A stretch of 64,000 bases of DNA from assembly GCF_003334355.1 (NCBI RefSeq), contig NZ_QOWP01000011.1; one strand, written 5' to 3'. The position numbers are program-made. Shown here piece by piece: positions 44,801-47,800 of this stretch. Source of the stretch: Escherichia coli (GTDB lineage: Bacteria; Pseudomonadota; Gammaproteobacteria; Enterobacterales; Enterobacteriaceae). Each line of letters opens with the position of its first letter. Position 1 is the stretch's first letter.

Positions 44801-47800
44801 TATTCCGCAATGAATGCGGGTAAGTCTACAGCATTGTTGCAATCTTCATACAATTACCAGGAACGCGGCATGCGCACTGTCGTATATACGGCAGAAATTG
44901 ATGATCGCTTTGGTGCCGGGAAAGTCAGTTCGCGTATAGGTTTGTCATCGCCTGCAAAATTATTTAACCAAAATTCATCATTATTTGATGAGATTCGTGC
45001 GGAACATGAACAGCAGGCAATTCATTGCGTACTGGTTGATGAATGCCAGTTTTTAACCAGACAACAAGTATATGAATTATCGGAGGTTGTCGATCAACTC
45101 GATATACCCGTACTTTGTTATGGTTTACGTACCGATTTTCGAGGTGAATTATTTATTGGCAGCCAATACTTACTGGCATGGTCCGACAAACTGGTTGAAT
45201 TAAAAACCATCTGTTTTTGTGGCCGTAAAGCAAGCATGGTGCTGCGTCTTGATCAAGCAGGCAGACCTTATAACGAAGGTGAGCAGGTGGTAATTGGTGG
45301 TAATGAACGATACGTTTCTGTATGCCGTAAACACTATAAAGAGGCGTTACAAGTCGACTCATTAACGGCTATTCAGGAAAGGCATCGCCACGATTAATAA
45401 GAATTTCTTTACTGACAGGGTGAGCAGGGCACTTTTATCCTGTCAGTTCGTTTTACGCACTTCTTCCGGGCTATATACCCTTCTCGGCAGTTTTTTAACG
45501 CCGCTATACGCCTCACAGGGCTCTTAAGCACCGACGTTGACTTGTGACCTGTAAAGTACAATATCCCTGTGTTTAGGCGTTATACATCGTCGCAAATATG
45601 ATGAAGGCTAATGCTGTCGGTTTATGGAAAAGTTGCTTTGGGTAAACAAAAAATACGGTCCCAGAAGGGCAATGCCGTTCACTTAAGAGGAGCGGCACTA
45701 TGTTTCACAGGATAACGGGTTTTTGATATCTTAACCGACCTCGGCCTTGATGGTCGGGGGCGTTTTGTTATGAACACCACTTCCAGAGCACCCCGAAGAT
45801 GCTCCAGTCGTTTCGGGATGGTCCCTGGTGACGCCGTGTTTCCCAGCTCTATCATTTCTGATGCGATATTCTTCCACGCAGGCAGTAGCCAGTGGCGGTT
45901 ACAACCCTTCTGGTTCAGCGTCAGCAGCAGGTCTTCGCTGTAAAAAAGTTTATCAAACAACGTAATAGAGTTATCCGGGATGGTGGCGAGCATGGAGTGG
46001 GCCAGCACAGTTTCGCTCTGCCGGTAAGGTGCGGTCACGGCATTCAGCAGAATGTGACTTCCCAGGTTCATTAAGGCCACCAGACGCATAACCGGGTAGG
46101 CGTTCTGCCGCTTAGTGGATGTGTTGGCAGACCCATAATATTCACGCAGCTCGGGTTTATCAGGTGTCCTGAACTGTGCGCCATCAATGGCAAAAAGTTG
46201 CAGGCCGTGCCAGTCATCCTTCAAGTAACGTTCCGCGCCCCTGTCTGTGCGGTCTGGCGGAAGAGCCATTCCACTGGGGCGGCCCCCACGCGCTGACGCG
46301 CCTGGGTGACAGCGCTGCGGGCCAGCAGGTTCATCCCCGCTTCGCCATCCGCGCTCAGGTTCAGACGGCGAACAACATCGGTAATTGGCTCATTGCACCA
46401 CCATCCAGATAACCATGTCCCCCGGTAAACGACGGCGGCGAACGGTCGCATGAGCAGAAAACGTCAGGCAGTGTTGTATCCACTCGGTGGGAAGGTGTTC
46501 TGCAAATAGTTGTGCAGAGGGCGGAGGCATAAGCGGATGGTCACTGAAATCGAGCAGATCATTGAGAAGTGGCATAAGAAAACGGCTCCCTGTTGTGGAA
46601 GCCGTTATAGTGCCTCAGTTTAAGGATCGGTCAACTAATCCTTAACTGATCGGCATTGCCCAGAAGGGGCCGTTTATGTTGCCAGACAGCGCTACTGATT
46701 AAGCGGATTTTTTCGCTTTTTTCTCAGCTTTAGCCGGAGCAGCTTCTTTCTTCGCTGCAGTTTCACCTTCTACATAATCACGACCGTAGTAGGTATCCAG
46801 CAGAATCTGTTTCAGCTCGGAGATCAGCGGGTAACGCGGGTTAGCGCCGGTGCACTGGTCATCGAATGCATCTTCAGACAGTTTATCCACGTTCGCCAGG
46901 AAGTCTGCTTCCTGAACGCCAGCTTCACGGATAGATTTCGGAATACCCAGTTCAGCTTTCAGCGTTTCCAGCCATGCCAGCAGTTTCTCGATCTTAGCAG
47001 CAGTACGGTCGCCCGGTGCGCTCAGACCCAAGTGGTCGGCAATTTCAGCATAACGACGGCGAGCCTGCGGACGGTCATACTGGCTGAATGCAGTCTGCTT
47101 GGTCGGGTTGTCGTTCGCATTGTAGCGAATAACGTTACAAATCAGCAGGGCGTTTGCCAGACCGTGCGGAATATGGAACTGGGAACCCAGTTTGTGCGCC
47201 ATTGAGTGACATACACCCAGGAAGGCGTTCGCAAACGCGATACCCGCGATAGTCGCTGCACTGTGAACACGTTCACGCGCTACCGGATTTTTAGACCCTT
47301 CGTGGTAGGACGCTGGCAGATATTCTTTCAGCAGTTTCAGTGCCTGCAGAGCCTGACCATCAGAGAACTCAGATGCCAGTACAGAAACATAAGCTTCCAT
47401 GGCGTGAGTTACTGCGTCCAGACCACCGAAAGCACACAGGGACTTCGGCATGTCCATAACCAGGTTGGCGTCGACAATCGCCATATCCGGAGTCAGCGCA
47501 TAGTCTGCCAGCGGATATTTCTGACCAGTAGCGTCGTCAGTTACAACCGCAAACGGAGTGACTTCAGAACCTGTACCAGAAGTGGTGGTGACAGCGATCA
47601 TTTTCGCTTTCACGCCCATTTTCGGGAACTTGTAGATACGTTTACGGATATCCATAAAGCGCAGCGCCAGCTCTTCGAAGTGAGTTTCCGGATGTTCGTA
47701 CATAACCCACATGATCTTCGCGGCGTCCATCGGGGAACCACCACCCAGCGCGATAATCACGTCTGGTTTGAAGGAGTTTGCCAGTTCTGCACCTTTACGA

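Follow-up and report, generated by a model that had tools for sequence, protein, structure and literature searches.

The spacer between tdk and adhE in Escherichia coli contig NZ_QOWP01000011.1 (assembly GCF_003334355.1) almost certainly harbours a dead insertion sequence (IS) of the IS4 family, IS4 subgroup, which was inserted there and then decayed. It is an object that already has a name, being annotated in K-12 as ISZ′/insZ. The analysis covered 64,000 nucleotides (nt) of this contig, called the window below; positions refer to it unless another source is given. ISZ′ as a whole is 989 base pairs (bp) long and lies on the minus strand from 45670 to 46658, limits obtained from alignment to a 1,430-bp intact copy and from the terminal repeats. 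It is bordered by tdk (44780-45397, plus strand) and by adhE (46699-49374, minus strand), the gene whose terminator was struck. A preliminary description of the window had equated a decayed insertion at this place with insZ of K-12. This identification is sound: over 7,001 bp (galU-hns-tdk-ISZ-adhE) the window and MG1655 (NC_000913.3, 1292000-1299000) are 99.886% identical, and ISZ/insZ lies at the same place. ISZ′/insZ is also found among the K-12 elements in PMC3032704. Moreover, a 1,301-bp region comprising the element and its flanks is 100% identical by megablast to strain PSS-12, and the homologous coding sequence (CDS) of other strains bears the RefSeq name 'IS4 family transposase, frameshifted'. 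ISZ′ is a non-autonomous relic of a 1,430-bp IS of the DDE cut-and-paste type.

Ends and coding remnant of ISZ′

Both termini of the element, 18 bp each, are preserved (CAATGCCG…/…CGGCATTG). The terminal inverted repeat at the 3′ end of the transposase gene (IRR, CAATGCCGTTCACTTAAG, plus strand, 45670-45687) was located by inverted-repeat search and comparison with intact copies, and the one upstream of the gene (IRL, CTTAACTGATCGGCATTG, plus strand, 46641-46658) by the same search and by alignment. They are complementary at 16 of 18 positions. IRR is identical to the corresponding end in four intact copies (L001, L009, L012 and L013), IRL matches the end of L001, and the similarity to the intact element breaks off exactly at 45670 and 46658. 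Repeat search and junction analysis placed the two copies of a target-site duplication, CCCAGAAGGG, directly outside these ends at 45660-45669 and 46659-46668; the direct repeat is perfect (10/10 bp). The preliminary description had seen no terminal inverted repeats, and on this point it was mistaken: a search for flanking inverted repeats and a target-site duplication found both. Since both repeats and the duplication are kept, ISZ′ is a complete but internally deleted insertion and no fragment. The candidate reading as a fragment only, without inverted repeats, was rejected on the same two ends and 10-bp duplication. For the IS4 subgroup, an end signature -AATR--------WTW---- and target duplications of 10-13 bp have been tabulated (PMC2266710, Table 1). 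The two ends, CAATGCCGTTCACTTAAG and, for the right end in reverse complement, CAATGCCGATCAGTTAAG, show AATG at positions 2-5 and TTA at positions 14-16, and the duplications are 10 bp here and 10-11 bp at four other ISZ-type sites.

Three overlapping open reading frames (ORFs) occupy the minus strand, as had been described before: a first one of 61 amino acids (aa; 46390-46575), a middle one of 76 aa (46221-46451) and a third of 196 aa (45679-46269). They had been called out of frame, which is true of the middle ORF but not of the first and third, which share one frame (46575-46269 = 306 = 3x102). The three ORFs thus fall into two frames, because deletions of 17 bp and 1 bp shift and then restore the frame. 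NCBIfam model NF033592 matches the 196-aa ORF (E=2.9e-23) and the 76-aa ORF (E=2.7e-07), and the protein of an intact relative finds the window by tblastn with E=8e-130. The earlier reading of the ORFs as a transposase-like, IS4-like protein is therefore well founded, the match being much too strong for chance, and similarity to IS transposases, whose absence was to count against it, was returned by NF033592, Pfam and tblastn alike. From the ORFs, the tblastn segments and NF033592, the insZ pseudo-CDS extends from 45679 to 46575 on the minus strand and covers residues 1-~247 and ~388-445 of a 445-aa transposase, in two frames. The limits 45679-46575, first given for the remnant as such, are hence those of the pseudo-CDS, not of the element (45670-46658).

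The longer relative came to light when the region was compared by megablast with 5,426 complete E. coli genomes, the sample used for all counts of E. coli genomes below. On a plasmid from a pig E. coli (L001, 3001-4430) it measures 1,430 bp, encodes the 445-aa protein WP_029488891.1 and is about 92-93% identical in DNA to ISZ′. Two Pfam domains are present in this protein, Nterm_IS4 (1.7e-30) and DDE_Tnp_1 (5.1e-22), and its NF033592 score of 263 bits exceeds the cut-off of 115. Transposase homology to the IS4 family is thus found both in the ORFs of the window and in the intact relative. The family is defined by a D(60-110)D(100-150)E triad together with a Y-(2)-R-(3)-E-(6)-K motif (De Palmenaer, Siguier & Mahillon 2008, PMC2266710). 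The intact protein has D137 (AIDG), D214 (LFDK) and E318 with spacings of 77 and 104, and E318 stands within the canonical motif, YHSRWEIEVGFRNLK, at residues 311-325. Intact ISZ-type transposases (WP_029488891.1, WP_032257411.1 and WP_213850925.1) occur on E. coli plasmids and chromosomes, with intact copies in 162 genomes; RefSeq gives this form only the generic name 'IS4 family transposase'.

Pairwise alignment to the intact copy revealed three lesions in the window copy. The largest is an in-frame deletion of 423 bp with its junction at 45854/45855, which lies between imperfect direct repeats TTTCTG(T/C)CGCGATA and takes out residues ~247-387. The D137 and D214 regions survive, and only the catalytic Glu E318 and the YREK motif (311-325) fall in the deletion. 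A 17-bp deletion at 46395/46396 causes the first frameshift, after about residue 60, and a 1-bp deletion at 46241/46242 shifts back to the original frame. Together the three amount to 441 bp (423+17+1). A search of ORFs and alignment for an uninterrupted full-length transposase frame at the locus found none, in agreement with the earlier statement that no intact DDE transposase is present: E318 and YREK are deleted and the frame is broken. The triad and motif are thus incomplete in the window copy itself, and the single ORF typical of the IS4 family is broken by the 17-bp and 1-bp deletions. Judging from their absence in intact copies, these frameshifts are mutational lesions and not a programmed frameshift. 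At 989 bp the copy also falls outside the size range of the IS4 subgroup (1,400-1,650 bp; PMC2266710, Table 1), a shortfall from 1,430 bp that the three deletions explain fully. Because Glu and YREK are lost and the 17-bp and 1-bp deletions have been acquired, ISZ′ is unable to make transposase. By its sequence, the window copy is a member of the IS4 family by descent but not a functional one.

A dead element may nevertheless move if its ends are used in trans by an intact ISZ transposase, in the manner of a miniature inverted-repeat transposable element. Both 18-bp terminal repeats match those of intact copies, such copies are present in 162 genomes, and ISZ′ coexists with copies of the full-length type in at least one genome, OkiPb01684. 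However, in genomes that match at all, the median number of places is one, and no second 989-bp copy was seen among the matches sampled, for which one place is listed per record. IS4-family transposases such as those of IS10 and IS50 act preferentially in cis, which further weighs against mobility in trans. We therefore consider a still mobile ISZ′ quite improbable and keep to the reading as a dead relic.

Other ISZ-type copies were seen elsewhere in E. coli. A second decayed one lies beside nanM/nanC (L008, 2524-3290, strain Z1323HEC0422; also in an O157:H7 genome). It decayed independently, with other internal deletions and without the right end, and is annotated as 'transposase domain-containing protein, frameshifted'. 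Near-full-length copies between copM and silE (L009-L011; ATCC 8739, ETEC H10407 and others) are 1,429 bp long, one base short, and annotated as frameshifted. Many strains share this insertion, whose site in the sil/pco metal-resistance island is the terminator of silE.

The adhE terminator as landing site

ISZ′ is inserted in the loop and inner stem of the intrinsic terminator hairpin of adhE. At an empty site (e.g. L003), which reads AAAAAAACGGCCCCAGAAGGGGCCGTTTAT, the hairpin is intact. On the adhE strand it consists of AAACGGCCCC-UUCU-GGGGCCGUUU, then UUUUGUUU; on the minus strand of L003 the arms AAACGGCCCCTTCTGGGGCCGTTT+TTTTGTTTAC form 10 pairs. The 55-nt stretch of the adhE 3′ end that contains it folds at -23.3 kcal/mol, the terminator scan calls it, and it starts about 24-25 nt past the adhE stop codon. 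Its presence in empty-site strains was checked and confirmed. Comparison with the empty site locates the two halves of the split terminator in the window, both on the minus strand: the proximal half (AAACGGCCCCUUCUGGG) at 46659-46675 and the distal half (…GGGACCGU then AUUUUUUG) at 45655-45669. The terminator scan does not call the adhE hairpin in the window because the insertion splits it. The left flank differs from the empty site by a T for C at 45659, a stem position, and by reading AAAAAATACGG instead of AAAAAAACGG at about 45647-45656; such differences may have built up once the hairpin had been split. The terminator-like hairpin of tdk (45411-45447), identified by repeat search and terminator scan, is untouched by the insertion.

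With ISZ′ at one fixed place in ~35% of genomes, the sequence might also be ancestral to the tdk-adhE spacer, strains without it being deletions. Such a history is hardly credible. ISZ′ ends in inverted repeats, which a perfect 10-bp direct repeat flanks, and removing the element together with one copy of the direct repeat restores the hairpin seen in 2,186 genomes, apart from small left-flank differences just outside the repeat. In addition, the same type of element occurs at unrelated loci and on plasmids, each time with its own duplication. The insertion reading is the one we follow. A DDE element inserted once into the centre of the GC-rich adhE terminator hairpin, duplicating 10 bp. It then lost 423 bp in frame through deletion between short direct repeats, and this copy also acquired the 17-bp and 1-bp deletions.

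The tdk-adhE locus exists in three states. The comparison of presence and absence across strains that had been proposed at the outset found, out of 5,426 genomes, ISZ′ in 1,884 (at least 80% of the 1,301-bp query with flanks), the uninterrupted hairpin in 2,186 and, at this same junction, an element of IS4 type in 1,137. The ISZ′ copies, present in about 35% of the genomes, are 99.3-100% identical among the matches sampled. The third state is genuine IS4, intact in L006 (1,426 bp) and decayed in L002 and in L007, an O25:H4 strain (1,145 bp). It has the same orientation as ISZ′ and a 12-bp duplication, CCCCAGAAGGGG; its junctions in L006 are at 2759-2782 and 4185-4210. Because the two transposases are only 39% identical and 34 bp of DNA are shared, ISZ′ and IS4 at adhE are independent insertions. 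Comparison of intact and decayed IS4 (L006 and L007) gave 98% identity for the elements against 93% for the flanks, which hints at two separate IS4 insertion events at this hairpin. The adhE terminator is thus a recurrent landing site. With roughly 40/35/21% of genomes empty, with ISZ′ or with IS4, respectively, the spacer is a three-state marker and, owing to this split, a convenient one for lineages.

Undeleted ISZ at tdk-adhE was sought with a chimeric query in which the window flank and the left end of the element were joined to the sequence missing from the window. None was found among the 5,426 genomes; the best matches start at query position 43-48 and thus stem from other loci. In view of this absence, either the carriers form one lineage or they spread only after the decay had occurred. 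From these sequences, the decayed form looks vertically inherited from one old event.

The choice of the adhE site would reflect a preference of the transposase for terminator-like DNA with an A-run, a palindrome and a T-run. Other ISZ-type copies occur in four places with duplications of 10-11 bp: in the silE terminator; in the ssrA-ypjA interval, again in a terminator-like hairpin; within umuD of a plasmid, at a CCCC…GGGG palindrome; and on a plasmid with a type VI secretion system. Four remoter relatives from Klebsiella, Salmonella and Ralstonia (36-58% identity, 1,429-1,431 bp) each lie centrally in a hairpin built of A-run, GC-stem, loop, stem and T-run. A scan for the conserved IRL end with one genome per species yielded 120 loci; 11 further complete elements were reconstructed, 10 of them in A-run/hairpin/T-run sites. 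Thus almost all of the reconstructed sites of ISZ, IS4 and relatives (n=21) are terminator-like hairpins, most of them placed between an A-run and a T-run. The elements with this placement span Enterobacterales, Aeromonas, Photobacterium, Ralstonia and others. Among 115 unique IRL-side flanks, a T-run at nt 11-30 was present in 71%, compared to 6% of random controls; the ends of the duplicated segment were palindromic in 63%, compared to 8% of controls. These data suggest that the preference is common to ISZ, IS4 and other members of the subgroup. At the assignable sites the orientation relative to the neighbouring gene was co-directional in six cases and opposite in two, without significant bias. 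Mayaux et al. in 1984 reportedly proposed an AAA-N20-TTT target for IS4 and described an IS4 in the pheST attenuator. We regard the target preference as a modest side observation that is partly documented before, a preference of IS4-type elements having been reported in PMC2266710.

Element hairpins and the end of the adhE transcript

A terminator-like hairpin, AACGGCUUCC-ACAACA-GGGAGCCGUU followed by UUCUU, lies at 46576-46606 on the minus strand, as supported by terminator scan, RNA folds and comparison with relatives. It abuts the AUG of the transposase (46575) and sequesters its GGAG; according to the scan, adhE transcription past the stop codon meets no earlier terminator-like site in the window. 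RNA folds show a second, subterminal hairpin in and next to IRL (CAGUUAAGGAU…AUCCUUAAACUG, minus strand, 46616-46648), whose loop contains TTGACC, a possible -35 element that recurs at the equivalent place in IS4 and in an ISAeme15-like element. From the IRR (tdk) side, the terminator scan finds an inward-facing hairpin on the plus strand at 45739-45759, then GCGTTTTGTT. Equivalent inward-facing sites are present in IS4 (L006, 2775-2800, plus strand) and in the ISAeme15-like element (L017, 1731-1705, minus strand), and the IRL-side hairpins of these two are at about 4108-4140 (minus strand) and at 418-446 (plus strand), respectively. A hairpin with U-tract before the AUG is found in IS4, in the ISAeme15-like element and in the Salmonella and Klebsiella relatives, with unrelated sequences; in the Ralstonia relative, IRL itself serves as hairpin in the RNA fold. 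In IS4 and the ISAeme15-like element, TTGACC and its -10 partner form a promoter-like pair that would place the start of transcription within the hairpin's 5′ arm. Transcripts initiated by the element itself could accordingly escape the hairpin, and read-through transcripts would be stopped. IS10 and IS50 are protected from activation from outside, and by analogy the hairpin and U-tract at 46606-46576 would once have shielded ISZ against outside read-through.

The same hairpin would now serve as terminator of adhE and make the insertion nearly neutral. Whether it has in fact replaced the native terminator we judge to be an even matter, the prediction resting on folding models. If the hairpin works, the insertion would be nearly neutral, in keeping with the persistence of ISZ′, and adhE transcripts of K-12-type strains end ~95 nt farther downstream than those of empty-site strains. 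The adhE 3′ end in K-12-type strains is not the ancestral terminator but probably a hairpin supplied by an IS, which is relevant for engineering or modelling adhE expression. Some points weigh against this picture. Replacement termination is derived from consensus scans and folding, and the U-tract behind the ISZ hairpin (UUUUCUU) is weaker than the native UUUUUUUG. Orientation shows no significant bias (6 versus 2), so that a replacement terminator cannot lean on a fixed orientation of insertion. Finally, the single origin of the 1,884 copies is deduced from the high identity of the copies and the lesions they have in common instead of from a phylogeny. Nothing in the evidence gathered contradicts the identity of the element or its decay.

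The hairpin also bears on whether the remnant was kept through domestication, either as an N-terminal DNA-binding peptide or as a selected regulatory or terminator module. The 99.3-100% conservation among the carriers sampled would fit such a role, as would the terminator-like hairpin of ISZ′, the only one to follow adhE in the window. Against the peptide, the 17-bp deletion interrupts the N-terminal frame after ~60 residues. High identity is predicted equally if the carriers share a recent ancestor, and the remnant is dispensable because empty-site and IS4-bearing strains are equally common. Domestication thus has little probability, and we hold to an unselected relic.

A more general proposal is that IS4-subgroup elements are dedicated 'terminator-homing' ISs, which enter the loop of intrinsic terminators of the A-run/hairpin/T-run type and bring their own inward-facing terminators at both ends. 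We are slightly less inclined to accept than to reject it. According to this proposal, the IRL-side hairpin is probably bypassed by the element's own promoter, with its predicted start in the 5′ arm. Termination of the host gene would be restored, the transposase would be shielded from read-through and the insertion would be close to neutral. Homing of this kind would account for two observations: the persistence of a dead copy, and the occupation of the adhE terminator in at least 56% of the complete E. coli genomes, to which two or perhaps three independent insertions have led. A literature search for a primary description of the terminator or palindrome target of IS4 returned only PMC2266710 and a general preprint of 2025 (10.1101/2025.07.22.666184), which notes terminator-like sequences upstream of and inside ISs in general. 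Only the link to a self-supplied replacement terminator would be new. An IS subgroup that targets terminators and brings its own would be an example, only partly new, of a transposon limiting damage to its host.

Comparison with K-12 and with related elements

The K-12 annotation, projected onto the window, lists no other IS. This agrees with the earlier view of the remnant as the sole mobile-element footprint there; REP/BIME elements lay outside this comparison. IS5U (insH21), which lies between ychE and oppA in MG1655, is absent. Its target is unoccupied at 50748-50751, where the K-12 flanks join with a 4-bp overlap, and the window is therefore from a close relative of K-12 and not from MG1655 itself. 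Repeats were also noted elsewhere in the window. Three tandem ~535-bp repeats, 97-98% identical, at about 20335-21876 are the counterparts of the K-12 toxin-antisense RNA cassettes ldrA/rdlA, ldrB/rdlB and ldrC/rdlC. Downstream of narI, at about 37955-38885, repeated ~180-bp units (95-97% identical) overlap features that K-12 annotation names as ychS, rttR/tpr and the tRNA genes tyrT-tyrV.

The insZ copy of MG1655 is equal to that of the window in locus, orientation and sequence, and nothing of substance differs. MG1655 is annotated at this locus with 'insertion sequence:ISZ' (1294426-1295405) and with pseudogene insZ b4573 (1294426-1295322), the latter having the same limits as the pseudo-CDS of the window (45679-46575). 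The right coordinate of the annotated ISZ coincides with the right end of the window element. Its start, however, is placed at the stop codon of the pseudogene, and the true end of the element is 9 bp farther out (45670); the 10-bp target duplication carries no annotation. The present analysis thus sharpens the K-12 annotation slightly, by the true ends 45670-46658, the 10-bp duplication and the three inactivating lesions. As a finding ISZ′ matters little, being an annotated pseudogene in the best-studied bacterial genome.

IS4 (insG) is the prototype of the family, and one may ask whether ISZ′ is simply a decayed copy of this insG-type element of K-12. Both belong to one family and one subgroup. 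At the IRL end, 34 bp of the window (46625-46658) are 97% identical to IS4 in L006 (4162-4195), and genuine IS4 occupies the same hairpin in 1,137 other genomes. However, the IS4 transposase has only 39% protein identity to the ISZ-type transposase, and blastn detects no DNA similarity between ISZ and IS4 outside the 34-bp IRL stretch. This stretch stops one base short of the terminus and is presumably a transposase-binding or hairpin region. The first end base (C in ISZ′, T in IS4) and the duplication at the adhE site (10 bp and 12 bp, respectively) also differ, and a separate 1,430-bp element ~92-93% identical to ISZ′ exists. Iso-forms of an IS are delimited by less than 2% protein and/or less than 5% DNA divergence (PMC2266710), and relative to IS4 proper ISZ′ lies beyond these bounds. 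A decayed copy of IS4 itself was therefore rejected, on the 39% protein identity and the absence of extended DNA similarity, and we attach next to no probability to it. From the sequence comparison, ISZ′ stems from a distinct element of the IS4 subgroup.

Compared with the intact ISZ-type element, ISZ′ has the same IRR, which is identical across the copies examined, and the same hairpin before the AUG. The duplications of the intact copies are 10-11 bp long, compared to 10 bp for ISZ′. Unlike ISZ′, these copies have one 445-aa ORF with the full DDE/YREK set. The closest named relative is ISAeme15, the name given by the Prokaryotic Genome Annotation Pipeline to WP_088356258.1 from a Klebsiella IncC/IncR plasmid, with 58% protein identity. 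Like ISZ, the ISAeme15-like element (1,429 bp) has CAATGC… ends, sits in a terminator hairpin and carries inward-facing terminator-like hairpins at both ends; unlike ISZ′, it is intact, and at less than 60% identity it is a distinct element. Finally, IS4, with its 1,426 bp, falls into the same subgroup and size class as ISZ. Both have the end signature NAATGCC…, duplications within 10-13 bp and a preference for terminator-like palindromes, and IS4 is found in the same adhE terminator and in the same orientation as ISZ′.

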